Source of the DNA: Calditrichaceae bacterium
Lineage (GTDB): Bacteria > Calditrichota > Calditrichia > RBG-13-44-9 > J075
DNA length: 64,000 nucleotides
NCBI GenBank assembly: GCA_013360445.1
Contig: JABWBP010000001.1
Location: 1-64,000 of the forward strand
Direction: 5' to 3'
Position 1 is the first letter of the stretch, and each line of letters opens with the position of its first letter. The notes under the pieces are model-generated. The model saw nothing but the letters and a program-made list of their open reading frames with translations. It was not told the DNA's origin and made no database searches. Positions 6,069 to 19,089 of the stretch are shown in pieces. The position numbers were made by a program, and so were the translations under genes.

Positions 6069-6413
6069 ATGGAATTCTTGAAAAAACTTGCCTTGTTCGC
6101 GATACTGCTTTTAATATTAGGATGCGCCGGGGCCACCAAAGTACGGGACCTCAACGCCAATCCCCAGAAATACAACGGAAAAGTGGTGACCGTTAAAGGG
6201 CGGGTCATCGAGAGCTATTCTCTGCCCATCATCTCCTTCGGAGTGGCGCGCATCGACGACGGCAGCGGAGAAATCTGGGTGAAACCGCACGACCGCAGTT
6301 TTTTCGAGGGAGAAAAGGTGACCGTGAAGGGGGTGCTCAAAATCGGGATGACCCTGGGGAGCAAATCCTTCGGGTACATGGTGGTGGAAGAGCCGAAGGA
6401 AAAGAAGAAGTAG
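6069..6413 (+). CDS. Small lipoprotein with a predicted OB-fold (BOF/YgiW-like)
   Basis: Signal peptide with lipobox LILGC, then KVVTVKGRVIE...GEKVTVKGVLKIG, which looks like a beta-sandwich or OB pattern. Basic tail KEKKK. Confidence 0.5.
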   Translation: MEFLKKLALFAILLLILGCAGATKVRDLNANPQKYNGKVVTVKGRVIESYSLPIISFGVARIDDGSGEIWVKPHDRSFFEGEKVTVKGVLKIGMTLGSKSFGYMVVEEPKEKKK

Positions 6414-6427
6414 AACAAGCGGAAGAG

Positions 6428-6640
6428 CGGAAAAACAACTTAACTGATGTTACGCATTTTACCACATGGTTCGATAAACTCACCATGCAAAAGACACGGT
6501 GAACACAGAGTTTGCTTAGTGTTTTTTGCTTCAGCGCAGTCTCAAGTGCAATATATTTGATTTCCTCTGTGCTCTCCGTGGCTCTGTGGTTAATCTATTT
6601 GACTTGCATAACATCAGTAACTGAATGGCAAAATAATTCA
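6428..6640. mobile_element. MITE-like element copy A, ~180 bp, with terminal inverted repeats ACTGATGTTACGCATTTT ... TGCATAACATCAGT
   Basis: Termini aactgatgttacgcatttt and gcataacatcagtaact are near-perfect inverted complements. Internal inverted cacagag/ctctgtg motifs are present. A second copy with the same termini lies at 13448-13625. Confidence 0.65.
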
Positions 6641-6644
6641 AAAA

Positions 6645-7718
6645 TCATTTTGCCATTTCAAGATTAAACCCCAGCCCCGGCAGACCTGTGGGATAGAGAA
6701 TCCCGTCTTTCAGGATTACCGCCCCGGCGGAGGGATCGTCGAGCAAATCGAAGTGCCCGTCTAAGTCCGCGTAGGCCACGTTGGGGCGCGCCAGGGCAAA
6801 ATGCAGCCCCGCGGCAATGCCCAACGCCGCCTCGTCCATGCAGCCGATCATCGCTTCCAGTCCCGCGGAGCGCGCCACCGCGTTGATCATAAGCGCCTCG
6901 GAAATCCCCCCCACTTTCATCAGCTTCACGTTCACCATGTCCACTAAATCGTGCTTGGCCAGGCGAAAGGCGTCGCGCAGGTTCATCAGGCTCTCATCCG
7001 CCATCACCGGAATGTGAACCCCGCTGGTTACCCGCCCCAGCCAGTCCGGCTCCACTTTGGCGGTGGGCTGCTCGAAAAGCTCCAGTTTCGCCGAGCGGGT
7101 CGCTTCTACGAAATGCAGCGACTGCTCCACGGTGTAACCCTGGTTGGCGTCGAAACGCAGCTCGATGGGGGGACCCACCGCTTCGCGCACTTTTAATACC
7201 CGCTCGATGTCCGATTCCACGTCCGCCCCGCCCTTGAGTTTGAGGGATTTAAACCCCCGCCCCACAAATTCCCGGGCTTTTTCCAGCGTCTCTTGCAGGG
7301 GAAGAATGCCGATGGTAATGCTGGTGATCATCCGGTCGCGGAAACCGCCTAAGATTTTCCAGAGCGGGATGCCGGCGGTTTTCCCTAACAAATCGTACAG
7401 CGCCATGTCCACCGCCGCCAGGGCGGAGGGATGATTGGGCATGTGTTCCTTCAGGCGCTCTAACAGCAGCACCGGGCGCAGGGGATCGGAGCCGCTAAGA
7501 TTGGGAACCGCGATCTCTCCCAGGGCGGCTACCACGCCCGCGGGCGTTTCGCCGGTCACCTGTAAATCCGGCGCGGCGCAGCCGAAACCGTTCAGGCCGG
7601 TATTGGTTTCCAGGCGCAGAAAAATATTGGCGGTGGAGTCGATGGTCTCGTAGGCAATGGTATAAGGCTCCGCCAGGCGCATCTCCACCAGCCAGAATTC
7701 GAGGCGTTTGATTCTCAT
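6645..7718 (-). CDS. Dipeptide epimerase of the enolase superfamily (L-Ala-D/L-Glu epimerase, mandelate racemase / muconate lactonizing enzyme family)
   Basis: MR/MLE-family motifs are present, including the KLKGG and FDANQGYT metal-ligand regions and the MADESL and [14 protein letters not shown] blocks. Start is placed at MRIKRLEF (ATG 7716-7718). The longer 424-aa track ORF would read through the upstream hairpin repeat. Confidence 0.82.
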
Positions 7719-7737
7719 GGGGTCTGCTTTCCGTATC

Positions 7738-7832
7738 AGGGCAGAGCGCAAAGGGCATAGGGCATGGCGCATAGAGCAGAGCACGACGTTTTTTCTCTGC
7801 GCTCTGCTCCATGCGCCATGCGCTCTGCGCGT
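7738..7832. repeat. Long hairpin with a TTTTTT loop (stem gcagagcgcaaagggcatagggcatggcgcatagagcagagc / gctctgctccatgcgccatgcgctctgcgc)
   Basis: The inverted repeat is directly visible at 7740-7830. It shares the gcgcatggcgcat unit with the patch at 1238-1262. It sits between the epimerase start and the creatininase stop and could act as a terminator or insulator. Confidence 0.65.
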
Positions 7833-8644
7833 TAATACCGCAACTGGTACAACTCTTCTAAGCTCATGCTCTTTAACTCCTCGACCAGGTTGACCAGGTG
7901 CTCGATCATGGTTTCCCACATTTTCGCTCCTTTTTCGGCGTTAGCTTTGGTGGGATCGCCGATCACGCCGCTGGAGGAAATCCGGGTGGTGTACGCATAC
8001 CAGGAAATCCAGCGCTGGGCGGTAAAATTCAGGTAACGAATGGAAAACTTCGGCACTTCCTTTTTCGCCAGCGCCATTTTGACCAGGTGCGGGCGCAGGG
8101 CCAGGGCGGTGCTGGTTTCGATCTCCCCGGCGTGGATGTCGTTAGGAGTGTCGATCATCCCGTAAATATCCACGTCGCTGGTCTCCCCGCTGTCCACTCC
8201 CACGAAAATGCGCTTTTCGCGGTTGATCTTCTGGGCGGCAAAATTCAAGGCCGGGCCGTTGCCCCCGTGCCCGTTGATGATGATCAACTTTTTGATCCCG
8301 TTGCGCGCCGCGTTGATGCCGATCTCATAGACCAGTTGCGCCATGGTTTCGTTGCTGATGCTGATGGTTCCGCTGAAATCATCGTGCTGGTAGGAAACCC
8401 CGTAGGGGATCAGCGGCAGAACCAGCGGTTTGGGGTCGCTGCACCGCGCCGCCACCTGGCGGGACAGGTAGTCGGCGTCGAATGCGTCGGTATCCAGGGG
8501 CAGGTGAGGGCCGTGCTGCTCGATGGCGCCCACGGGCAGCAGCGCCACGTCCACTTCCGCAAAGCGTTTTTTCGCTTCCGGCCAGGTCAATTCGCCGAGA
8601 AGGTAGCTCCGGGCGGCAGCGGATGGTTTATCTTTTTCTTCCAT
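7832..8644 (-). CDS. Creatininase-family amidohydrolase (creatinine amidohydrolase / MftE / ArfB-like metal-dependent hydrolase)
   Basis: Family signature [11 protein letters not shown]...IINGHGGN...HAGEIETS, with its metal-binding His, Asp and Glu residues, is present. Confidence 0.8.
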
Positions 8645-8654
8645 GGATATATTT

Positions 8655-9060
8655 CTCCTTAAAAGTATAGCTCATTGGGGTCATTTGTTGTCATTTGCGC
8701 TTCGCGCGTCATTTATTGTCATTTACTTTGCGTCATTGGTGGTCATTTGCCCGTTAGGTTGGGGCGTTGCCGGAACTGCGCACGCCGTTGGAATGACGCT
8801 AAAGGTAAAATGACCACCAATGGCGCGTGAAACGCTATACTTTACGCGGTCTTAAATTAGACTTTTTAAAGAGGATGTACACTTGATTGCACTCATTCGT
8901 TTTCCACACGCTGAAGCGTGGCAATCAAAGATTACCTCACTTCAGTGAGGAATGCCCCCCCTCAAAAGTCTCATTAAATCCCGCGCGAAGTATAATGACG
9001 ATGAATGACGCGAAGCAAATGACACCGGAGGTAAATGACGCGAAGCCAATGACAAGAAAT
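8655..9060. repeat. GTCATT/AATGAC-type foldback repeat, two blocks separated by ~150 bp that contains small hairpins
   Basis: Left block is ggtcatttgttgtcatttgcgcttcgcgcgtcatttattgtcatttactttgcgtcattggtggtcatttgcc. Its complement is aatgacgctaaaggtaaaatgaccaccaatggcgcg. A second block at 8990-9055 is ataatgacgatgaatgacgcgaagcaaatgacaccggaggtaaatgacgcgaagccaatgac. Confidence 0.85.
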
Positions 9061-10578
9061 TCAATGGGAATGCGCCCCGCCGACCGGGTCGAACTCGCTC
9101 CAGCCCCGGCCATCAAAGCGCAGGGCGCCCCGGGCGTGCTCTAAATAAAGCCGGTGGAGCGGGGTACGGAGATCTTCCGGGATGGTTTCCGGGGGTGATT
9201 TTTCCGGGTGGAAACGCAGGTGCAGCACTTCGGGGTGCGGGGCCAGCGCGGTTTTTCGTTCCGCGGGCAGGTTGATCAATTCTTTTTCCATCAGCATCCA
9301 AAGGAGTTGTTGAAAACCTTCTTCTTCCTGGTGGATGCCTTTTTGCCCCAATTCTTGCAGGGAATGGGTAATTTGCGCGGGCGTGTAACCGCAGCGGGCG
9401 GGATCGGCGCCGAGCGCCTTGAGCATTCCCACGATGCGGCGGCATTTCTCGCACCTGCCGCAGGGATGCACCCGCTCGCCTTTTTTGTGAGCGGCGTGGC
9501 AAGAAACCTGCTGCGCCTGCAAGTGCGGGTAGCGCTCTACCAGGATTTTCTCGATCAGCAGCTCCGAGAGCGGGCGCAGCAGGGAAAACTGCCGGATGCC
9601 CCAGCCTTTTTGCCGGAAATAAGCGCTCAGCGCCTCGTCGAAGTAGCGGCTCTGGTCGTACAGCCCGTCGTAGTGCGCGATGCCGCGGAAATTCTCCCGC
9701 ACCGTGGTATCGTATTCGTCGCCGATGATCAAACGCCCGAGGCCCCGCTTGCGCATCAACGGCAGCGCCCCGAAGAGGAACACCGCCACGGTCCAGAGGC
9801 GGATGGGGTACATATCCGCCCGCAGCCGGGCAAAATCCGGGCGAATGAAGGGAAGATGGCGCTTCATCCGGGAAAATACCCGGTCGCTGTTCATCCACAC
9901 CCGCCCGGTGTTGGGGACGTTGGCCTTGAAGTAGCGGTAAGCGTTGAGGGCGGTGAACCAGTGCCGCCCGGATTCGTTCCCGAAGACCGGGTGAGCTTCG
10001 CAGCCCAACTCGTTCAGCAGTCCGAAGCTGAGCAGGCTGTCTTTTCCGCCGCTGGAGAGCACCAGGTAGCGGGATAGGGATTTTCGATTTTCGATTTTTG
10101 ATTTGCGATTTCCTATTTTCGGATTTCGGGTTGCAGATTCTTCATCGGGGAAAAGCAGCTTCGACTGCAAGTAGCTTTTGGGGCGGATTACCGGCAGATT
10201 TGCCGCTTCGCCGATCAAGAAAGGGTTGGGGTGCAGAAACTTCTTCACGTAGATTTCGCAGGCGGTGTTATCGGCCATTTCGATCAAAAACTGCCGGTCG
10301 GCGCCATCGTAGCTGCCGCGGAAAACGATCTCCTCGCAGAACAGGCCGTAGTTGAGCGCTACCTGGGCGGCAATCATATCCGCCAGGTTCTGCGCACCCG
10401 GGTCGGCGGGATCGAACACCGGCTCTTCGTAGCGGTAGATTAAGTCGATGGAATCGGTTTTGCCGTTTCTGATAACCGTGTACGGCGCCACCAGCCGTTT
10501 CGCCTCCAGCCCCACCGGCCCGATTTCCAGGCGGTCGATCACTTTTAGTTGGGAAAGAGGATGGTCAGTTCGATTCAT
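9061..10578 (-). CDS. PP-loop ATP pyrophosphatase superfamily (adenine-nucleotide alpha-hydrolase) enzyme with a ~170-aa N-terminal extension and a C-terminal Cys cluster
   Basis: Contains LVLSSGGKDS (the SGGxDS PP-loop) and the C-terminal HPCGRCEKCRR (CxxCxxC), as in TtcA, QueC or amidotransferase-like members. I cannot assign a specific family from sequence alone. Confidence 0.65.
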   Translation of the reverse strand: MNRTDHPLSQLKVIDRLEIGPVGLEAKRLVAPYTVIRNGKTDSIDLIYRYEEPVFDPADPGAQNLADMIAAQVALNYGLFCEEIVFRGSYDGADRQFLIEMADNTACEIYVKKFLHPNPFLIGEAANLPVIRPKSYLQSKLLFPDEESATRNPKIGNRKSKIENRKSLSRYLVLSSGGKDSLLSFGLLNELGCEAHPVFGNESGRHWFTALNAYRYFKANVPNTGRVWMNSDRVFSRMKRHLPFIRPDFARLRADMYPIRLWTVAVFLFGALPLMRKRGLGRLIIGDEYDTTVRENFRGIAHYDGLYDQSRYFDEALSAYFRQKGWGIRQFSLLRPLSELLIEKILVERYPHLQAQQVSCHAAHKKGERVHPCGRCEKCRRIVGMLKALGADPARCGYTPAQITHSLQELGQKGIHQEEEGFQQLLWMLMEKELINLPAERKTALAPHPEVLHLRFHPEKSPPETIPEDLRTPLHRLYLEHARGALRFDGRGWSEFDPVGGAHSH

Positions 10579-10672
10579 GCGGTTGATATACCACGTTTGA
10601 TGAATACGTTGGGTTTAGCGTAAAATGATGATCTTTGACAAATGAATCGGGCTACCCTTGTTCTAAGCACCC

Positions 10673-10692
10673 TGTCAAACTGAAGTTTGACA
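10673..10692. promoter_or_regulatory. 20-bp palindrome TGTCAAAC-tgaa-GTTTGACA, copy 1, upstream of the PP-loop gene
   Basis: Sequence is exact at 10673-10692. It sits about 80 bp upstream of the PP-loop gene start, in the gap after the DUF1611 stop. Confidence 0.6.
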
Positions 10693-10747
10693 CTCCTGGT
10701 TTCTTCTGCTACTCGAAACTGGTAACCCAAAACTCGTAATTCGCAAC

Positions 10748-11824
10748 TTACTTTGCCAGATACGGCTTCAGCACTTCCACCAACTCCCCCGCCCCGAATT
10801 TGAGCACGTCAAATGCCGGCAGGCCCACGGCTTTCTGGATCGCGTCGCAAACTAAGGGAATTTGCTCGTTGGGCAAGTCTTCGTGGTTGATGGTGATCGC
10901 TGCCACGGGTTTGCCGGAGAGCAATTCGACCACCTGGATTTGCTTCGCCAGGGGATGGATGGGATAGCCGGGGAACCCGTCGTAATCCCTGCGCGCCGGG
11001 GCGTGCTGCAGAATGACCAGGTCCGGGCGTCCCCCGGCGAGAATCTCGAATCCCCCGGGATAGGCGGGGTTCATCAAGCTGCCCTGCCCTTCGATGACGA
11101 TCACCTCCGGCTGCGCCTCTTTCCAGGCGCTCCAGACCACGTGTTCGATCTCCCCGGAAACGAAATCGTTGACCAGCGAATCCATGATGACGCCGTAGCG
11201 CGCCCCCTGCATCCAGGCGGTCTGGCCGGTGCCCACCATCTCCGCTTTGTAGCCCGCCTCTTCCAGCGCCTGCACCAACAGCCAGGCGGTGGTGCGCTTG
11301 CCCACCGCGGAATCGGTTCCTAACAAGGCGATTTTCAAAGAAGCAACCTGCTCGATCTTGCCGCTGAAGAAATGCAAATTCTCCCGCGCCGGGGGTTTGC
11401 GCACGTCGCGGATGGCCGCGCCGGATTGCTGTGCAAGCTGCACAATTTCTTTATCTTCAGACAAAAAGTCGTGCAGCCCGGAATCCACGTTCAAGCCCAG
11501 GCGGAGCGCTTTTTTCACGTCATCCCGGGCGGCCAGGCTCAGGCGGCCCCCGTCCGGCGCCAAACCGATTACAAAATTGTTGGCGGGAGCGCCCCGCTCC
11601 TGCCCCAATTGAACGGCCTCCTCCAGGGTTGCGCATACCGGAATGTCTTTTTCCCGGCCGTCTAACACCTTCCCGGCGTCGCGGCCTTTGTAGCGGGAAT
11701 CGATCACCGCGATGACGTTATAGCGCCGGGTGAAGCGCACCAGCCCGTGGGCGGTTTTTCCGTTGGGAGTATTGAACGCGCCTTCACAGTACACAATCGC
11801 GTTGCCGTCAATTGCATTACTCAT
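10748..11824 (-). CDS. DUF1611-family protein (DgcN-like; frequent genomic partner of dipeptide epimerases)
   Basis: Conserved DUF1611 blocks IALLGTDSAVGKRTTA and VIVIEGQGSLMNPAYPGGFEIL. Start is placed at MSNAIDG (ATG 11822-11824) with aggaga upstream. The track start at 11881 is a TTG codon inside the palindrome. Confidence 0.7.
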   Translation of the reverse strand: MSNAIDGNAIVYCEGAFNTPNGKTAHGLVRFTRRYNVIAVIDSRYKGRDAGKVLDGREKDIPVCATLEEAVQLGQERGAPANNFVIGLAPDGGRLSLAARDDVKKALRLGLNVDSGLHDFLSEDKEIVQLAQQSGAAIRDVRKPPARENLHFFSGKIEQVASLKIALLGTDSAVGKRTTAWLLVQALEEAGYKAEMVGTGQTAWMQGARYGVIMDSLVNDFVSGEIEHVVWSAWKEAQPEVIVIEGQGSLMNPAYPGGFEILAGGRPDLVILQHAPARRDYDGFPGYPIHPLAKQIQVVELLSGKPVAAITINHEDLPNEQIPLVCDAIQKAVGLPAFDVLKFGAGELVEVLKPYLAK

Positions 11825-11875
11825 ACGATTCTCCTGGTGTACCTTTGGGTTTGCAAGCGCTGAGGCTTTTAGGAG

Positions 11876-11895
11876 TGTCAAACTTTAGTTTGACA
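11876..11895. promoter_or_regulatory. 20-bp palindrome TGTCAAAC-ttta-GTTTGACA, copy 2, inverted flank orientation, ~50 bp upstream of the DUF1611 start
   Basis: ggagtgtcaaactttagtttgacagc. Its flank ggagtg is the inverse of the cactcc flank of copies 1 and 3. Confidence 0.6.
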
Positions 11896-12228
11896 GCGGC
11901 CGATCCCGGATCGTCGCATCGGCGTAAAACCTCAGACTATTTGCCAGCAATTTCAGGCCGCACTCGTTCCCAAACTCTGTTTGGGAACGGAATCATTCCC
12001 GAAACTCTGTTTCGCTTCCCGGTAAACAAGCCGCATGCTGCGCAATTCATGTTCTCGAAACAAAGTTTCGAGTGTTAGTGCGTTCCTATCCCGGCTAAGC
12101 CGGGATGAGAACGAGACTGGTAGTCGAATGTTCACCGAAACCGCTCAGGTTTACGCCTATGCGGACCGCCAGGATACCAACAGCGCAGGATCGTGAAAGT
12201 TGATAAAACAATCATATCCCTGCGGTCT

Positions 12229-12248
12229 TGTCAAACTGAAGTTTGACA
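12229..12248. promoter_or_regulatory. 20-bp palindrome TGTCAAAC-tgaa-GTTTGACA, copy 3
   Basis: cttgtcaaactgaagtttgacactcc, identical to copy 1 including the flank. It lies between the ThrC-like stop and the DUF1611 start. Confidence 0.6.
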
Positions 12249-12310
12249 CTCCGGCGTTGCTTTCCTTTTTCCTCTTGCCTTTTTCCTTTTCCCCTTGACA
12301 GCCAGCCGGA

Positions 12311-13429
12311 TCACGACTTCCTCCCGGTCAGGAGCACTACGTAGCGGTCGTTGGGCAGGGGTTGCTGGCGGTGCTGCTCTACTAAGGCGATCAATCCCGC
12401 GGTGGAGGCGGGCAGTACGTTCAAACCCTCCCGCTCGCGGAGCATTTTGGAAAAGACCAGCATGTTCTTATCGCTGGCGTTGGCCGCCCAGCCGTTGGTC
12501 TGGCGGATGGCCGCCAGCGCGTAGTCCCCGTCGATGGAGTGCCAGTTGATCAGCGGCTCGTTGATCATGGTTTCCCGGATTTGCTGCGGGGCGAGATCTT
12601 CGCAAGTGGGCGTATTCTTCAAAAACGCCTGCACAATGGGATTTTTGTTATAAGAAGAACCTGCCACCATTTTGGGGATGCGGGAGGTCTTCCCGCGGCG
12701 GTAGAGGCTGACAAATCCGCGGTAAACCCCCGCTAAGGTAGTGCCGTTGGAGACCGGGGCGACCACCACCGCCGGGGCGTCGCTCAATTCGTCGTAGATT
12801 TCGTAGGCGATCTCCCCGTAGCTTTTCAATTGCAAGGGGGTATTGGCGCCCCCGGGATTGGCGTCGTAAACCTCGTTTTTCTCCGCGTATTCCTGGGAGG
12901 CGTACACCGCCGCCTCATAATCGCCGGGCACACGCAGGATTTCCGCCCCTAAGTCGGTCATTTCCTTTACCCGCCCGGTGCGGAATTCTTCGGGGATGAA
13001 CACCACGCAGCGCAGCCCCGCCACCGAGGCGGCCAGGGCCATGGCTACCCCGTAGTTGCCGCAAGTGGCCATGGTGATGGTATCGAAATTCCGGCGCAGG
13101 GCATCCATGGCCTGGGCAAAAGCGATGCGGTCTTTCTGGGTTCCGGTAGGATTGCCGCCTTCGAATTTGAGGTACAATTGCCGGAACCCGAATTCCCGCT
13201 CGATATTGCGCGCCCGGCTGAGGGTAGTATCGCCCACTTCGCACTCGAAAACGTCCTCGTAGGCTTCCAACCGTTCTTCTAAGTCGCGGGAGCGATCCGA
13301 GGCGATCTTCCACTGGTCTTCGATCTCCCGGGCCACCAGGGCAATCTCGCCCTCCGCGCCGTCGAGCAGATCGATGAGTTTTTCGTTATCTATTTGCGGA
13401 TCGTTTTGCGGCTTCGGGACGTTCTCCAT
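12311..13429 (-). CDS. PLP-dependent fold-type-II enzyme, threonine-synthase-like
   Basis: GGNPTGTQKDR matches the PLP-lysine region of threonine synthases (LNPTGSFKDR), followed by a Gly-rich PLP phosphate loop. About 70 aa of acidic N-terminal extension. Confidence 0.7.
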   Translation of the reverse strand: MENVPKPQNDPQIDNEKLIDLLDGAEGEIALVAREIEDQWKIASDRSRDLEERLEAYEDVFECEVGDTTLSRARNIEREFGFRQLYLKFEGGNPTGTQKDRIAFAQAMDALRRNFDTITMATCGNYGVAMALAASVAGLRCVVFIPEEFRTGRVKEMTDLGAEILRVPGDYEAAVYASQEYAEKNEVYDANPGGANTPLQLKSYGEIAYEIYDELSDAPAVVVAPVSNGTTLAGVYRGFVSLYRRGKTSRIPKMVAGSSYNKNPIVQAFLKNTPTCEDLAPQQIRETMINEPLINWHSIDGDYALAAIRQTNGWAANASDKNMLVFSKMLREREGLNVLPASTAGLIALVEQHRQQPLPNDRYVVLLTGRKS

Positions 13430-13447
13430 GATGCTCCTCCATTAATT

Positions 13448-13625
13448 ATAGAACTGATGTTACGCATTTTCACACAGAGGCACAAAGATCACAGAGTTTT
13501 GACCAACATTTTCAAATTTGGATTTCTCAAAGTGCTCTAAAACTTACTGAATGTTTGAGTTTCTCTGTGCCTTCTGTGTCTCTCTGGTTAATTTTTTCAA
13601 CCCGCGTAACATCAGTTATAGAAAA
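13448..13625. mobile_element. MITE-like element copy B, same family and orientation as 6428-6640
   Basis: Termini gaactgatgttacgcatttt and gcgtaacatcagttatag, with internal cacagag/ctctgtg repeats. Together the two copies bracket the five-gene minus-strand cluster 6645-13429. Confidence 0.65.
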
Positions 13626-13905
13626 CTCAACCCCTTCCGTAGCCGGCGCTCGGGCGCTCCCCCCGGGAGAAGTTCGTGCTCCCCGGGGACTTACGGTGAG
13701 TATAACACCCCCAATCTCACCGGTGCAAGGAAAGATTTTCCTTTGTTGGGAAAGGGACAAGCCACTTCTTCGGAGCACTCCTGTTGTGCAATTTGACATG
13801 CGCCTTCACCCGGAGCCGGAAAGTATTTGGATTTGCAGAACTTGCAAAAATTCCTTATTATCGACTGTCGCCAAATAAAAAGCAGTGAACTACGGAGGAG
13901 TTTTC

Positions 13906-16900
13906 ATGGCCGGGGCAAAAAAATTCGGCGCCTTCAGCGGAGTGTTCACCCCTTCCATTCTGACCATTCTCGGCGTGATCATGTACCTGCGCCTGCCCTG
14001 GATTACCGGCCAGGCGGGGTTGTGGAGCACTATTGCGATTGTGCTGGTCGCCCACCTGATTTCGGTCACCACGGGTTTGAGCGTTTCCTCCATTGCCACG
14101 GACAAGAAAGTGAAAGCCGGGGGAAATTATTATATCATTTCCCGCAGCCTGGGCCTGCCCATCGGGGGAATGCTGGGATTGGCGTTGTTCGTGGGCCTCT
14201 CTTTCAGCGTGAGCCTTTATTTGATCGGCTTCTCGGAGAGCCTGCTGGCGGCGCTGGGGATGGAAATCACCCCCAACACCATCCGCATTTCCGGCACCAT
14301 TGCGCTGTTAGCGCTCACCACCATCACCTTTATCAGCACCGCCCTGGCCCTCAAGACCCAGTTTTTCGTGCTGGCCATGATCGTGCTCTCGCTGATCTCG
14401 GTATTACTGGGAAGCCACGATTTAGTCCCCGCGCAGCCGCATTTCAATTCGTTGCCGGGCGCGCCCTCCTGGATGGTGCTGTTCGGAATTTTTTTCCCCG
14501 CGGTTACCGGGTTCGAGGCCGGGGTGTCCATGTCCGGGGACCTGAAGGACCCCAAAAGATCCATTCCCGCGGGCACCATCAGCGCAATAACGGTGGGTCT
14601 GTTGGTGTACCTGGGCCTGCCGTTTTTCTTCGCTTATACCGTGGATGCCAACGCCCTGGCCAACGATACCAACGTGCTGCTAAAGATCGCCTATGTGCCC
14701 ATCCTGGTAACCATCGGCATCCTGGCGGCCACCTTCTCTTCCGCCATGGGCAGCATTTTAGGCGCGCCCCGCATCCTCCAGGCCACCTCGGTGGATCGCA
14801 TCACCCCGAAATTTTTCGCCAAAGGTCACGGCAGGGAAAACGAGCCGCGCAACGCCCTGCTGCTCACCTTCCTGATCGCCGAGGGCGGCATCCTGCTGGG
14901 GGAATTGAATCTCATCGCCCGCATCGTTTCGATGTTCTTCATTACCACCTACGGATTTCTGAATATGAGCTGCGCCCTGGAAAGCTGGGCTAGCGCGGAT
15001 TTCCGCCCGGAGTTCAAAATTCCCCGGGTAGTGAGCGTTATCGGCTCCCTGGCCTGTTTTATCGTAATGATCCAACTGGATTTCCTGGCCATGATCGGCG
15101 CAACCGTGGTGATGGGAGCGATTTTTGTGTCCCTGAAGCGCAAAGAGCTGACCCTGGAGTCCGGCGACACCTGGGAAGGGGTGTGGTCCTCCGTGGTGCG
15201 TTCCGGGTTGTACCGGCTTACCCACGAAATTCCCCACCCGCGCAACTGGCGCCCCAATATCATTCTGTTCAGCGGGGGGGTTTCCGCCCGGCCTTACCTG
15301 GTGCAGTTGGGAAAATGGCTCATCTACAAACGCGGGGTGCTGTCCGATTTTGAGCTGCTGGAATCCCCTCCGAAGGAGTCTTCGACGGCGCGCAAAGGGC
15401 TGCCTCCCAAATCCCACCAGGTGGTTGTCGATAAATCGCACGGCCCCGGTATTTTCACCCGCAGGCTGGCGGTAGAGGATATTTACCAGGGGATGGAAAA
15501 TGTCTGCCAGTTTTACGGTTTTTCGGGGATGGAACCGAATACGGTGATGATGGGCTGGGCCAGGAACGCCCAAAGCCCGGAAAAATTTTCCCGTCTCATC
15601 TCCCACCTTCACCAGTTGGATTATAACGTGCTGCTGTTAGATTACGACCGGGAGCGGGGTTATGGCGATCACAAACAGGTGGATATCTGGTGGCGGGGAT
15701 GGGGCAACAACCTCTCCCTGGCCCTGGCGCTGGTGCGTTTTCTGCTCTCCACGGATGAATGGGAAAAAACTGCGGTGCGCATCCTGATCGTGAACAACGC
15801 GGATGCCCTGACCGGCGCAATTCGCAAAAATATGCAGCGGGTATTGGAGGAATACCGCATAGAAGCGGAAGTGAAAGTGATCCAGAACGGCATCGAGCAG
15901 CGGCCCTTCGAGGAGATTATCAAAGTGGAATCGAAGGAAGCGGATCTGGTAATTTTGGGCCTGCCGGAATTCACGCCCGACAAAGCGCTGCCGTTCGTGC
16001 AGCGGATCGATGCTATCGTCGGTGAATTAGGCTCGATTCTGTTGATCTGGGCTTCTTCGTATTTCAAAGAAATTTACGTCGGCATCGAAAGCGCCGCGCC
16101 GGCCCCGGCGAGGACGCCGGAAACAGCCGCCGGGGAGTTCTCCCTGCCGGAATTGGCGCTGCCGGAGGACGAACGGATCGCCCCGTTGCTGGCGGAGCTG
16201 GATTCCCGGATGGCGGATATCCTCTCCCGCTACCGGGATGAATTTTTAAAGCGCGTGGAAAAATCCGAAACCGGGCTGATCGATGATCTTGGACGGCTAT
16301 CGGAGCAAATTTTCGGCAACCTGGACAAATATTTCGATGAAGAAGACCCCCAGCGCAGCCGGAAGTTGATCAATCGCAGCCACAGCGACTTTTTGTTCCA
16401 GAGCCAGCAGATATTAACGGAATTTCAACAAAAACGGCTTTCCGGGCAAAAAGAGGCGCTGGAAGAAGGCGCCGCCTGGCTGCTGCAGGAAATCGAGGCG
16501 CTGATCGCTGCCGGGCCGGAGCAGCTCACCGTGTTCTATGAATCTGCCCGGGTGCAGCCGGATCCGCAGGATCGCCTTTCCCTTAAATTTCTGAAGTTCC
16601 GCAAACGGATGCGCGCCCGGCTTACCGGCAAACCGGTTTCCCGGGCGGTGCGCCTGCAATCGCTGCTGAAATACTACCTGCAATTCAAGCTCCCGCAACA
16701 CTGGTATGCGGAGTTGGAAAAAGCGGCGGTTTGCGATTACCAGGGTATTGCCGAGGTTCAAAAACTGATCCACTCCCTGCGGGAAGGGCTGCTGCGCATC
16801 GAATACCGCCAGGCGCCGGAGAATTTGGCCGGGGAAGATATTTCCGCGGAACGGCAGAAAGCCGAAAAGCAGCTTGCCCTGCTCCGGAATACCGTTCGCG

Positions 16901-19089
16901 AGACGCAGGCGGACTTTTACCGCAGCCTGCGGGAAAACGCCCGGGGCGGCATCCAGGCGCTCAGCCAGGATTTGCAGGATTTAGAGATTCGCCGCAAGCT
17001 GAAAAAGGAGTACCGGGTTCCCAAATCTGCCGCAGCGTTGCGGCAGCAGATCGCTGAAGCGCCGGAAGCCTGGCTGCGCCACCGGGAGACGTACCTGAAT
17101 ATTGCCCTGTTAGACGTATGGTTGATGTCTTTGCAGAACCGGGTACGGGTGATTGTGCAGCGGATACGGCAGGATATCAATCTCAACCTCGAGGCCAACC
17201 TTCTGCATCCCCTGAAAGAGCTTTGCCGCGGCCTGGAAGCGGTTCGGGAAGAGGGAAAGGAGAGCGAAGATCGCCCCGCCGCCCTCGCCAGGCTGGCCCC
17301 CGGCGGCCAATTCAATTTTGATGAAGATGAGATCGCGCAAACCTTCCTGAAGGAAATCCGCGAAGCGACCGATGACCTCCCGGAAACCATCGAAACGTTC
17401 AACGAAGAAAGTTTTAATCAGAGCGCCGCACAGCCCTTCGAGGAAGCGGCCAGGTTTACGATCTCCCTGCGGCGGCTGGTGGAATATTTGATCGAAGAAG
17501 AATTCATCGATCCCTTGCGCGACTACCTGGAAAAGCTGCCCCGGCAATTCCGTCGCGCCGAAGAGGTTACCCGCGACGCGCTCCGCCTGGTTACCTTCCA
17601 GGCCGTGAGCCTGGAGGAGGCCGGCAACGCGGAGGAGAAAACCGCCGCCCGGGAGAATATCGACGCGATCCTGGAAAGCAGCCAAAAGCGGGTGGAGGAG
17701 GAGCGCCGGAACATCGATGCGCTGCAAGAGCAATTCAACCAGACCATCGAGCGGCTGCTCGATAAAACCTTCGAACAGATGAACACCTACACGGTGACCC
17801 GGCTGGCGGAGAATTTGAAACATTACATCCGCACCCATGAAGGCCAGAAAGTATTATCGAAATTCGAGGCGGCCCGGGAATCCGCCGCCGCTTTTCTAAA
17901 GGATAAGCTGGTGCGCCTGTGGTACCGGCGCAGCGAGAGCCTGTTAGCGGCGCGAAAGCTGCAAGTATCCGAGGAATACCAGAAAAATATTATTTATCAA
18001 CTGCTCAATTTGCGGGAAAGCGTTTCCCCCCGCCCGGAAGTGCTCAATGCCCTGCCCTTTTATTACCGGCAGGTTTTTTCCAGGGAACCGAACATTCATC
18101 CCAATTTCTGGGTGGCGCGGGAAAAAGAGCTGAAATTAGGGGAAACCGCGCTGGAACGCTTCCGCGCCGGGTTCCCGGGCGCGCTGCTGGTTACCGGGGA
18201 AGAAAATTCCGGGAAGACCTCTTTGTGCTATTCCCTGGCTCACAAGCAGTTTGCCCGGAACAACATTTTTTCGGTACATCCGCCGGCCGGCGGCACTATA
18301 GATCCGGAGGTATTCCGCGAGGCGGTAATGAGCGCGCTGCGCGCCAAAGACCTGTACCTGCGCGGCCAACTTCCCCAGGTATTCAATGCCCTGCCGCCGA
18401 ACAGCGTTTTGATTCTCGATGACCTGGAATTGTGGTGGGAACGCAGCGAAAAAGGCTTTGCCGTTATCGATCTTATCGTGGAATTGATCAACGATTTCGG
18501 GGGCAAATGCTTCTTTATAGCCAACGGTAATTTGCACAGTTTTCAATTGCTCAATCGCATCCGCAAGATCGAAAATCATTTTTTAGGCTTCATCGAATGC
18601 CAGCCCTTCGACGCCGAAGCGCTGAAGGACGCGGTCATGCTGCGCCACCGTTCTACCGGTTTAAAAATCGAGCTGAACGGGCAGGCGGAAGATGAGCTTT
18701 CCGAATTACGGCTGGCGCGGTTGTTCAACGCCTATTTCGATTACTCCGCGGGAAACGTGGGCGCGGCGCTGCAAGGCTGGATCAGCCATATCGAAAATTT
18801 CAACCAGGGCCGGCTCGCGCTTCGCCTGCCGGAACCGCCCGATACCGCTTCCCTGGAAAATTTGGAAAGCGCCTGGGTGGCGCTGCTGGCGCAGGTGCTG
18901 CTCCACAAGCGCTTAACTCCTGCCCGCCTGGAGCGAATCATGGATGATCCCGCGCAGGAGTGGCAGGCTCCCCTCGCCGCTCTCAAACGCGCCGGGCTGG
19001 TAATCGAAGGGACTAATGGGACGCTGGAAATCGATCCGTATCTCTATCCGCACCTCTACCGCAAATTTCGCCAGATGGAGATTCTATAA
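13906..19089 (+). CDS. Giant fusion protein: SLC12/cation-chloride-cotransporter-like (APC superfamily) permease + CCC C-terminal domain + ~900 aa coiled-coil + C-terminal P-loop NTPase with a possible winged helix
   Basis: The N-terminus (FGAFSGVFTPSILTILGVIMYLRLPWITGQAG, about 12 TM helices, then HPRNWRPNIILFSG) matches the CCC family. Residues 460-740 look like the CCC C-terminal domain. Residues 740-1440 are Glu/Arg/Leu/Gln-rich coiled-coil. Residues 1440-1720 carry Walker A GEENSGKTS, Walker B VLILDDLE and a sensor-like FFIANGN. It is a single uninterrupted 5.2-kb ORF. The GTG at 13885 is the track start, but ATG at 13906 has ggagg 7 nt upstream and is preferred. Confidence 0.78.
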   Translation: MAGAKKFGAFSGVFTPSILTILGVIMYLRLPWITGQAGLWSTIAIVLVAHLISVTTGLSVSSIATDKKVKAGGNYYIISRSLGLPIGGMLGLALFVGLSFSVSLYLIGFSESLLAALGMEITPNTIRISGTIALLALTTITFISTALALKTQFFVLAMIVLSLISVLLGSHDLVPAQPHFNSLPGAPSWMVLFGIFFPAVTGFEAGVSMSGDLKDPKRSIPAGTISAITVGLLVYLGLPFFFAYTVDANALANDTNVLLKIAYVPILVTIGILAATFSSAMGSILGAPRILQATSVDRITPKFFAKGHGRENEPRNALLLTFLIAEGGILLGELNLIARIVSMFFITTYGFLNMSCALESWASADFRPEFKIPRVVSVIGSLACFIVMIQLDFLAMIGATVVMGAIFVSLKRKELTLESGDTWEGVWSSVVRSGLYRLTHEIPHPRNWRPNIILFSGGVSARPYLVQLGKWLIYKRGVLSDFELLESPPKESSTARKGLPPKSHQVVVDKSHGPGIFTRRLAVEDIYQGMENVCQFYGFSGMEPNTVMMGWARNAQSPEKFSRLISHLHQLDYNVLLLDYDRERGYGDHKQVDIWWRGWGNNLSLALALVRFLLSTDEWEKTAVRILIVNNADALTGAIRKNMQRVLEEYRIEAEVKVIQNGIEQRPFEEIIKVESKEADLVILGLPEFTPDKALPFVQRIDAIVGELGSILLIWASSYFKEIYVGIESAAPAPARTPETAAGEFSLPELALPEDERIAPLLAELDSRMADILSRYRDEFLKRVEKSETGLIDDLGRLSEQIFGNLDKYFDEEDPQRSRKLINRSHSDFLFQSQQILTEFQQKRLSGQKEALEEGAAWLLQEIEALIAAGPEQLTVFYESARVQPDPQDRLSLKFLKFRKRMRARLTGKPVSRAVRLQSLLKYYLQFKLPQHWYAELEKAAVCDYQGIAEVQKLIHSLREGLLRIEYRQAPENLAGEDISAERQKAEKQLALLRNTVRETQADFYRSLRENARGGIQALSQDLQDLEIRRKLKKEYRVPKSAAALRQQIAEAPEAWLRHRETYLNIALLDVWLMSLQNRVRVIVQRIRQDINLNLEANLLHPLKELCRGLEAVREEGKESEDRPAALARLAPGGQFNFDEDEIAQTFLKEIREATDDLPETIETFNEESFNQSAAQPFEEAARFTISLRRLVEYLIEEEFIDPLRDYLEKLPRQFRRAEEVTRDALRLVTFQAVSLEEAGNAEEKTAARENIDAILESSQKRVEEERRNIDALQEQFNQTIERLLDKTFEQMNTYTVTRLAENLKHYIRTHEGQKVLSKFEAARESAAAFLKDKLVRLWYRRSESLLAARKLQVSEEYQKNIIYQLLNLRESVSPRPEVLNALPFYYRQVFSREPNIHPNFWVAREKELKLGETALERFRAGFPGALLVTGEENSGKTSLCYSLAHKQFARNNIFSVHPPAGGTIDPEVFREAVMSALRAKDLYLRGQLPQVFNALPPNSVLILDDLELWWERSEKGFAVIDLIVELINDFGGKCFFIANGNLHSFQLLNRIRKIENHFLGFIECQPFDAEALKDAVMLRHRSTGLKIELNGQAEDELSELRLARLFNAYFDYSAGNVGAALQGWISHIENFNQGRLALRLPEPPDTASLENLESAWVALLAQVLLHKRLTPARLERIMDDPAQEWQAPLAALKRAGLVIEGTNGTLEIDPYLYPHLYRKFRQMEIL

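Follow-up and report, generated by a model that had tools for sequence, protein, structure and literature searches.

A five-gene operon with a QueC/MurL-like PP-loop enzyme, conserved across bacterial phyla, and the miniature elements at its ends in a Calditrichaceae genome

Five genes on the minus strand of contig JABWBP010000001.1 from a Calditrichaceae bacterium (assembly GCA_013360445.1; the first 64,000 nucleotides, referred to here as the window) stand between two miniature inverted-repeat transposable elements (MITEs) that lie in the same orientation. This arrangement raised the question of whether the elements had carried the genes to their present place, as a composite-transposon-like or recently mobilised cassette would suggest, and what the five enzymes do together. 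The answer favored here, with moderate confidence, is that the genes are one intact operon of a widespread, strongly conserved and horizontally exchanged family, whose products act on an amino acid or a dipeptide, and that the MITEs are a separate matter.

The operon and its conservation across phyla

The five-enzyme cluster described in the initial annotation was borne out. Five intact genes occupy positions 6645-13429 of the minus strand, and their order of transcription is that of a pyridoxal phosphate (PLP) enzyme, a DUF1611 protein, a PP-loop enzyme, a creatininase-family hydrolase and an epimerase of the MR_MLE families (Table 1). All five family calls, that of an adenylating PP-loop enzyme included, proved right. 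As for the extents of the open reading frames (ORFs), the genes themselves stood and two of the starts had been placed too far upstream. The longest ORF of the DUF1611 gene reaches 11881, past the called start (the ATG at 11824), and the longer ORF of the epimerase gene, up to 7919, is an upstream extension of the called start at 7718.

Table 1. Positions in the window of the operon genes, of the repeats in and around them and of the adjoining features
Feature	Positions	Strand	Description
Gene 1	12311-13429	-	Fold-type II PLP enzyme, ThrC-like (NCBIfam PRK06381 family); Pfam PALP, E 1.5e-55
Gene 2	10748-11824	-	DUF1611 protein, DgcN-like (Rossmann-like N domain and P-loop C domain); Pfam DUF1611, E 5e-65, and DUF1611_N, E 4e-25
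Gene 3	9061-10578	-	505-residue QueC/MurL-like PP-loop ATP pyrophosphatase with extra N- and C-terminal domains
Gene 4	7832-8644	-	Creatininase-family metallo-amidohydrolase, closest to MftE; Pfam Creatininase, E 2e-72, full length
Gene 5	6645-7718	-	Enolase-superfamily dipeptide epimerase; Pfam MR_MLE_N and MR_MLE_C
MITE1	6443-6618	+	176 bp; flanks AACTTA (6437-6442) and AACTGA (6619-6624)
MITE2	13453-13616	+	164 bp; perfect duplication TATAGA (13447-13452) and TATAGA (13617-13622)
Promoter-like match	13445-13473	-	Sigma-70 type, best in the region; 10 of 12 consensus positions, a consensus match only
GTCATT element	8675-9060	not assigned	Inverted-repeat element of GTCATT repeats in the 416-bp gap between genes 3 and 4
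Nested element	8836-8994		159-bp inverted-repeat element inside the GTCATT element
Element between genes 1 and 2	11871-12252		About 380 bp; 24-nt inverted ends GGAGTGTCAAACT and AGTTTGACA
Palindrome, copy 1	10673-10692		TGTCAAACTNNAGTTTGACA
Palindrome, copy 2	11876-11895		In one end of the 380-bp element
Palindrome, copy 3	12229-12248		In the other end of the 380-bp element
Heptamer hairpin	7741-7833		Repeats of the type GGGCATA/GGGCATG/GCGCATA in the gap between genes 4 and 5; arms of 33-35 nt, 77-85% complementary
Transporter gene	13885-19089	+	1734-residue protein, divergent from the operon
Spacer before transporter gene	13625-13884		260 bp, from MITE2 to the transporter gene
Lipoprotein gene	6069-6413	+	114-residue predicted lipoprotein

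Homologs of the PP-loop protein were numerous, more than 3,000 proteins being matched. The best 120 of them, to which the described identities refer, showed 59-67% identity except for a few close relatives, and most were about 790 residues long with a C-terminal creatininase domain. When one genome per GTDB species was scanned, at least 419 stretches were found to encode a relative, and the best 80 loci were kept. Their hosts belong to more than 12 phyla in all, and include Desulfobacterales, Ignavibacteria, Calditrichia, Gemmatimonadota, Zixibacteria, Planctomycetota, Acidobacteriota (with Aminicenantes and Holophagae), Latescibacterota, Eisenbacteria, Krumholzibacteria, Bacteroidota and others. 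They came mostly from sediment, groundwater and similar samples, soil and lake sediment among them, and many are sulfate reducers or other bacteria of anoxic sediment. The full operon is also carried by the cultured Desulfosarcina variabilis (NZ_CP159846) and D. alkanivorans (AP021874).

The five window proteins were then compared with these loci by tblastn and the loci were classified, 58 of them having enough flanking sequence to be assessed. All five genes were found in the same order and on the same strand at 49 of the 58. A three-gene form with only the PLP, PP-loop and creatininase genes was present at six, the creatininase gene was missing from two, and the epimerase gene from one; the three-gene form was also seen in L008. 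Across the loci, each of the five proteins was 58-76% identical to its counterpart in the window. More than 12 phyla share these five genes as a conserved unit.

The PP-loop and creatininase parts were encoded in one reading frame at 73 of 77 loci, which makes the split arrangement of the window rare, and a fusion of DUF1611 with the PP-loop protein was found in P0141. Among more distant homologs of the PP-loop protein, P0146 (534 bits to the family profile) is encoded behind PALP and DUF1611 genes at a contig end. P0158 (about 400 bits) and P0197 (about 256 bits) likewise follow PALP and DUF1611 genes, and there the PP-loop gene is followed by a small GNAT acetyltransferase gene in place of the creatininase and epimerase genes. 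The ThrC-like PLP enzyme and the QueC/MurL-type PP-loop enzyme form the invariant core, usually accompanied by DUF1611, and the last steps vary. DUF1611 and the epimerase were either present together or, in the three-gene form, absent together, and this pair behaves as an add-on module to the core.

The variant with PALP, DUF1611, PP-loop and GNAT genes, lacking creatininase and epimerase, was observed in L177 as well as at the P0197 locus. In the latter, the variant operon is followed by genes for Lon, a Na+/H+ exchanger with a TrkA_C domain and an MFS transporter.

Median pairwise identities within and between phyla were nearly the same for all of the proteins: 62.6% and 59.4%, respectively, for the PP-loop protein, 70.2% and 66.9% for the PLP enzyme, 70.8% and 69.2% for the creatininase, 66.6% and 64.3% for DUF1611, and 66.0% and 63.6% for the epimerase. 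The nearest neighbor came from the same phylum in only 42 of 71 proteins, and some pairs from different phyla were 82-91% identical. Since identity within phyla approximates that between phyla, strong constraint and horizontal transfer are both indicated, as would be expected if the operon were under strong purifying selection and had repeatedly been transferred whole. The operon family is therefore mobile on evolutionary time scales, yet resident in the window genome. At 60-75% identity between phyla, it is about as conserved as core housekeeping genes, and having no assigned function for an operon this common leaves a major gap in what is known of metabolism in sediment and soil bacteria.

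Particular pairs of PP-loop proteins with 82% identity were L044 with L051 (Eisenbacteria and Gemmatimonadota) and L010 with L016 (Ignavibacteria and Zixibacteria). For the PLP and creatininase proteins identities of up to 91% were seen between phyla, and these are signs of recent transfer of the operon from one phylum to another.

The two MITEs at the ends of the operon

Two MITEs in direct orientation do mark the ends of the operon, as had been noted, and their boundaries were refined to those of Table 1. MITE1 lies 25 bp downstream of the last gene and MITE2 lies 23 bp upstream of the first start codon, and they are the sole copies of their family in the window. The 13-mer ACTGATGTTACGC was found at four sites (one mismatch allowed) against 0.05 expected, and these sites form two inverted pairs. 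With inverted ends of 13-20 nt, 6-bp duplications, lengths of 164-176 bp and no ORF, both elements have the make-up of MITEs. The claim that they are two copies of one element held for the ends (25 nt at 92% identity, 66-73 nt at 75-77%) and failed for the interiors, which do not align. They are best described as old, diverged members of one family, not as twins.

The 18-nt end of the MITEs was found in 88 metagenome contigs of the Joint Genome Institute, and in 15 of the 80 contigs read both ends stood 100-400 bp apart, several of them with 5-bp duplications. One metagenome contig (L122) holds an element of about 1142 bp that has the same 18-nt end, an inverted end some 1.12 kb away and a gene for a DDE transposase of 360 residues (Pfam DDE_Tnp_1 and DDE_5; YKKRWSVEEYHKSLK motif), and this element is a candidate for the autonomous parent of the MITEs. 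The identity of the ends over 18 nt to this transposase-bearing element and the target duplications of 5-6 bp recall IS4/IS701-type insertion sequences. Unlike an autonomous insertion sequence, the copies of the window are only 164-176 bp long and have no ORF, and the assignment to this type is tentative.

If the two copies had acted as the ends of a composite transposon that recently brought the five genes here, two related elements in direct orientation exactly at both ends of the operon would be expected, and so they are found; they are also the only ones of their family in the window, and transfer between phyla is clear for the operon family at large. A unit moved in this manner would carry one duplication around the whole. 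The check for target-site duplications that the initial annotation had proposed gave a separate one for each MITE, AACTTA/AACTGA and TATAGA/TATAGA, with no single duplication around the unit, and the outer flanks, AACTTA and TATAGA, differ; separate duplications argue against a composite. Nor are the copies near-identical, sharing only the 25 nt at 92% and about 70 nt at 75-77%.

The sister genome L005 (Calditrichaceae, GCA_964522165.1, about 92% nucleotide identity), the only relative compared at this site, carries the same five genes between the same neighbors (OmpA, MscS and a 1726-residue transporter on one side; the 114-residue protein, Band_7 and PspA on the other). It has MITE2 at the identical site, with the identical duplication and 96% identity, and it has no MITE1, about 100 bp of unrelated hairpin sequence standing in its place. 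Because MITE2 is present in L005 and MITE1 is not, only MITE2 was in place before the two genomes diverged. No MITE of this family occurs in any of the other 80 loci. The initial annotation had itself named conserved synteny of the five genes in genomes that lack the flanking elements as evidence against its cassette, and this is the situation observed. The GC content of the cluster (0.52-0.61) is that of the flanks and is flat across the region, with no deviation of the kind that marks a genomic island, and no plasmid matched the operon region.

Furthermore, small inverted-repeat elements of at least four kinds fill each of the six gaps between genes in and around the operon, and the other possibility raised at the outset, that MITEs favor intergenic DNA, is therefore the correct one. 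A recent move of the five genes between the two MITEs is, on these grounds, very improbable. The MITEs, derivatives of an element of IS4/IS701 type, instead inserted independently of each other into intergenic DNA that is permissive to such elements, and they did not mobilise the cluster. A striking bracket of MITEs can be a coincidence while the bracketed genes are the real find.

MITE2 may nevertheless matter for expression. The promoter-like match of Table 1 has its -35 box within the end of MITE2 and its -10 box, TATAAT, on the duplicated target site, 16 bp upstream of the start codon of the PLP gene, and this arrangement is kept in L005. MITE2 may thus supply the promoter of the operon.

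Enzyme families, proposed pathway and alternatives

The PLP enzyme exceeded the cutoff of the model NF004996/PRK06381, which is named threonine synthase (426.8 bits; cutoff 266), and failed the classical ThrC model TIGR00260 (105 bits; cutoff 167). Its best matches in the PDB were threonine synthases, at E 1e-28 only. In alignments with ThrC structures, the STGNT loop was replaced by TCGNY and the Arg of NPxRxEGQ by Gln. In T. thermophilus ThrC, this loop and this Arg bind the phosphate of the substrate. Because these phosphate-binding residues are changed, the gene 1 product is probably not a standard threonine synthase. The curated family search also showed a resemblance to cysteine and cysteate synthases.

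The DUF1611 protein, whose relatives in the PDB are 2g0t, 2obn and 7xrj, stayed below the cutoff of the DgcN equivalog (162.5 bits; cutoff 480). For the creatininase protein the MftE model was the best match and fell just short (160.5 bits; cutoff 172), while the model of true creatininases gave 111 bits against a cutoff of 235. The domain is most likely an amide hydrolase. It has the creatininase fold in common with MftE and creatininase; unlike these, it is fused to the adenylating enzyme in most of its family, and no mycofactocin genes (mft, MftA-D) were present among the called genes near the operon.

The central enzyme of the operon belongs to a family without a Pfam name. The PP-loop protein matched no family in the Pfam search, and a sequence search of the PDB gave no match. 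An AlphaFold model built from 27 homologs was confident (pLDDT 88.6, pTM 0.88), and both the fold and the motifs were QueC-like, the fold being also like that of Cap9. The ATP motif SSGGKDS (SGGKDS) is invariant, and so are six cysteines, C81, C360, C373, C376, C379 and C396, of which C360 and the CxxCxxC at 373-379 make up the motif whose spacing, like the nearest structures, fits QueC. The hallmark of QueC, an SGGxDS motif and a Cys4 metal site on this fold, is therefore present, and in QueC the Cys site binds Zn. The same ATP motif and C...CxxCxxC site are shared with Cap9 and QatC. Compared with these proteins, the PP-loop protein has some 300 extra residues and other partner genes, and it stands apart from other deazaguanine or queuosine genes: no QueC model matched it in Pfam or NCBIfam, and no queD, queE or queF was found among the called genes of the neighborhoods examined.

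The likeness to Cap9 and QatC brings to mind anti-phage defence related to QatABCD or to the type IV cyclic-oligonucleotide-based anti-phage signalling system (CBASS), in which such QueC-like proteins attach deazaguanine to proteins. This was rejected as a role for the operon, for none of the five proteins matches any PADLOC model, and we regard it as scarcely credible. The partner genes (QatA, QatB, QatD, a TGT-like protein, a CD-NTase) are missing, the companions are ordinary small-molecule enzymes, and near-universal synteny with 60-75% identity across phyla is unlike defence islands.

The six invariant cysteines would also suit an enzyme for sulfur insertion like TtuA, NcsA or LarE, with the operon making a thio-amino acid, thiocarboxylate or thioamide and the PLP enzyme forming a C-S bond. 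The resemblance of the PLP enzyme to cysteine and cysteate synthases and the many hosts that are sulfate reducers or other anoxic-sediment bacteria would go with such a role. It is nevertheless quite improbable, as the nearest structures and the spacing of the cysteines match QueC, no gene for a sulfur carrier, cysteine desulfurase or rhodanese recurs nearby, and the fusion partner is a hydrolase, ill-suited to a thiolation step.

The only curated family with sequence similarity to the PP-loop protein was MurL (NF041275; E 1.4e-5), over the region of the Cys motif (residues 313-382) only and at 23.8 bits against an equivalog cutoff of 700. A bridging homolog, P0268, matched both the profile of the PP-loop family (E 2.6e-35) and, over 225 positions, the MurL model (E 7e-10), and it has both motifs, as SGGRDS and CGSCEKC. 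Judging from these matches, the PP-loop protein is distantly related to MurL, an ATP-dependent peptide epimerase. For MurL, adenylation of the alpha-carboxylate has been proposed, with ATP being converted to AMP, and no recognisable domain was noted in it (PMC5808125, PMC8788868). Both enzymes are thought to activate a carboxylate with ATP, and by homology gene 3 would encode a carboxylate-adenylating enzyme. Differences are that MurL has MurD2 as a partner, no MurD-like gene being found in the neighborhoods examined, and that the PP-loop protein carries additional domains at both its N and its C terminus, usually forms a fusion with a creatininase-family hydrolase and is set in an operon with PLP, DUF1611 and epimerase genes. 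The family ties MurL, an orphan described as 'unprecedented', to QueC-type enzymes and offers a mechanistic frame for both.

The best PDB matches of the epimerase were the dipeptide epimerases 3jva, 3rit and 1jpm (E 7e-74 to 3e-63, full length). In the alignment with these, the KxK, DANQ, EQP, ADES, KLMK and DLD motifs were all present, and K160, K162, K268 and D318-x-D320 were invariant among 60 orthologs. The two catalytic lysines, the Asp/Glu/Asp metal ligands and the DxD motif that binds the ammonium group, shared with YkfB and with the enzymes from E. faecalis (3jva) and M. capsulatus (3rit), are thus all found, and the gene 5 product is predicted to be a bona fide member of the dipeptide epimerase family. 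Position 24, by contrast, is Glu in the window protein and in 55 of the 60 orthologs, whereas B. subtilis YkfB has Arg24, which we take to bind the glutamate side chain of the substrate. Because of this Glu, a substrate with a C-terminal Glu is unlikely, and its last residue may be a basic or polar one. The protein lacks the Arg of an L-Ala-D/L-Glu epimerase in the strict sense. A further difference from YkfB-type enzymes is that no murein-peptide gene lies near the operon.

These findings bear on a catabolic or salvage pathway for D-glutamate or cell-wall peptides, in which an extended DgcN/DgcA pair and an L-Ala-D/L-Glu epimerase would work with a MurL-like enzyme on a terminal glutamate. 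The nearest characterised relatives of three of the five proteins do act on D-Glu or X-Glu peptides, namely DgcN for DUF1611, L-Ala-D/L-Glu epimerase and DgcA for the MR_MLE protein, and MurL for the PP-loop protein, and the hosts live mostly in sediment, groundwater and the like, where D-amino acids from dead cells are abundant. DgcN and DgcA (D-glutamate N-acetyltransferase and N-acetyl-D-Glu racemase) are, moreover, a pair of a DUF1611 protein and an enolase-superfamily racemase or epimerase in D-glutamate catabolism. In the operon, however, this pair is accessory only and falls far below the equivalog cutoffs. The scores were 162 of 480 bits for DgcN, 148 of 400 for DgcA, 228 of 500 for the Thermotoga Ala-Glu epimerase and 24 of 700 for MurL. 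The epimerase has the true DxD of dipeptide epimerases, and its Glu at position 24 would repel glutamate. Genes for a peptide transporter, an LD-carboxypeptidase or an amidase do not recur in the neighborhoods, and the three-gene and GNAT forms do without the epimerase. Salvage of D-glutamate is hence unlikely.

The operon is made up of members of known superfamilies that resemble MurL, QueC, DgcN/DgcA, dipeptide epimerases and MftE and that fall short of the defining test of each specific family, and their combination is undescribed and very widely conserved. No description of the five-gene cluster was found in the full-text literature searched with the five enzyme names and the Pfam/InterPro accessions, subscription-only literature lying outside that search. 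The expectation in the initial annotation of a modified amino-acid or peptide pathway matching nothing described was in this way supported by a unit conserved across so many phyla.

Since the DUF1611 protein, the adenylating enzyme and the hydrolase are linked by gene fusions, they would act on the same or on successive intermediates, and the pathway is likely to be built on adenylation of a carboxylate coupled to hydrolysis of an amide. In the scheme that we propose, the PLP enzyme would make or convert a non-proteinogenic amino acid, and the DUF1611 protein would acylate or ligate its amino group. The epimerase would then invert the alpha-carbon of the C-terminal residue in a dipeptide-like intermediate whose N-terminal amine is free and whose side chain is probably basic or polar. 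The PP-loop enzyme would adenylate the free carboxylate (ATP to AMP and pyrophosphate), either to form an amide or lactam or to drive a one-way epimerisation as MurL does. Finally, the fused amidohydrolase would cleave an amide in the same molecule, for instance removing a helper acyl or aminoacyl group, and the product would be a small metabolite derived from an amino acid.

More specifically, and as a tentative suggestion that is possible without being probable, the operon may encode an undiscovered cross-phylum pathway to a new amino-acid-derived molecule (a lactam, an amide or a D-configured compound, possibly a compatible solute), centered on a MurL/QueC-type carboxylate adenylase fused to an MftE-like amidohydrolase as a new bifunctional enzyme. 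In a concrete version, a dipeptide with a basic, non-proteinogenic end would be epimerised, its C-terminal carboxylate adenylated and closed onto the side-chain amine, and the MftE-like domain would release an amino-lactam, much as MftE releases an amino-pyrrolidinone. The asnO-ngg pathway, which makes the osmolyte N-acetylglutaminylglutamine amide with an acetyltransferase/ligase and an adenylating, amidating enzyme acting on a dipeptide, has a similar logic. Its protein families are unrelated, and the operon adds a PLP enzyme, an epimerase and a hydrolase.

A weak hint of a role in osmotic or ion homeostasis, or of a compatible solute, comes from the neighbors. Within 6 kb of the operon, a YitT/DUF2179 membrane protein is encoded directly downstream at 14 loci, and UPF0316, MgtE, CorA, a TrkA-type K+ channel and MscS occur at 5-6 loci each. 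At least one such ion or channel family was near the operon in 19 of 52 long loci from several phyla, and the density of these genes was 9.3 per 100 kb within 3 kb against 4.3 per 100 kb beyond. In the window, the gene for the 1734-residue SLC12-like transporter and an MscS gene lie beside the operon, and the Na+/H+ exchanger with the TrkA_C domain is found at the locus of the GNAT variant.

Several points weigh against the proposed pathway and its link to osmotic balance. The family memberships, fusions and synteny were observed, and the chemical steps, like the substrate and the product, were all deduced from family resemblance. If an enolase-type epimerase and a MurL-like enzyme both did nothing but epimerise, one of the two would be superfluous. 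The three-gene form is without an obvious source of an acylated or dipeptide substrate. The cysteines of the PP-loop protein could bind an Fe-S cluster and not Zn, which would lead to sulfur chemistry. The ion and osmotic families were picked after the data had been seen, many of the loci are from related Desulfobacterota, and the hosts were sampled from groundwater and lake sediment as well as from saline sites. Nor did regulation point to a ligand or signal. Rfam gave nothing real as a riboswitch or leader in the window or in 18 related loci, the three weak matches being repeat hairpins against miRNA models; a count of 9-mers over 69 upstream regions gave no conserved motif; and no sigma-54 promoter was found upstream of gene 1 in 70 loci, despite the frequent NtrC-type regulators nearby (18 loci, mostly Desulfobacterota).

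Adjoining genes and other repeats in the operon gaps

The transporter gene that diverges from the operon encodes an amino-acid-permease or SLC12-like membrane domain and, near residues 1400-1540, AAA_16/AAA_22 ATPase domains. This fusion is unusual and is kept in L005, and an SLC12-like neighbor recurs at only one other locus, L065. The spacer between MITE2 and this gene was highly conserved with positions 6730-7165 of L005 except for one stem-like stretch, which differs on both sides (CCCCCCGGGAGAAGTTCGTGCTCCCCGGGG vs CCATCCGGAGAGGTTCTTAATCTCCGGGGA), and L005 has an extra insertion of 144 bp in the spacer. The spacer may be a structured leader of the transporter gene.

On the other side of the operon, the predicted lipoprotein has an internal repeat (KVVTVKGRV/EKVTVKGVL) and a weak match to DUF5818. 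Small secreted proteins with a motif like KVTVKGTV recur beside the operon in Desulfobacterota; blastp found no detectable relation between them and the lipoprotein.

In L012 and L006 (Desulfobacterales) and in L081 (Caldithrix), the operon adjoins a cluster around a radical SAM enzyme like lysine-2,3-aminomutase, with two ATP-grasp enzymes like D-Ala-D-Ala ligase and a fusion of a deacetylase with GNAT. A lysine aminomutase and an acetyltransferase are the route to the osmolyte N-epsilon-acetyl-beta-lysine. The aminomutase, ATP-grasp and deacetylase-GNAT cluster was set aside as a functional clue, as it lies beside the operon at only two loci, which is too few.

The gaps within the operon are occupied by further repeats (Table 1). 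The ORF of gene 3 (ending in FDPVGGAHSH before the stop codon) ends exactly where the GTCATT element starts, the spacer being 8645-9060, and the creatininase ORF restarts within the stretch that is the linker in the fused proteins. The split of genes 3 and 4 looks like a fission by insertion of the element. In L005 (11521-11793), the outer GTCATT element is present and the nested 159-bp element is absent.

The perfect 20-nt palindrome TGTCAAACTNNAGTTTGACA occurs in three copies in the window, against 0.02 expected, and all three are in intergenic gaps of the operon. The one outside the 380-bp element is a solo copy (at 10672-10697), and two copies are present in L005; the palindrome could be the end of a mobile element or an operator. 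Lastly, a hairpin of heptamer-like repeats similar to that between genes 4 and 5 (GGTATAGGGTATAAGGCAT…) was observed in L005 at the site that MITE1 occupies in the window.

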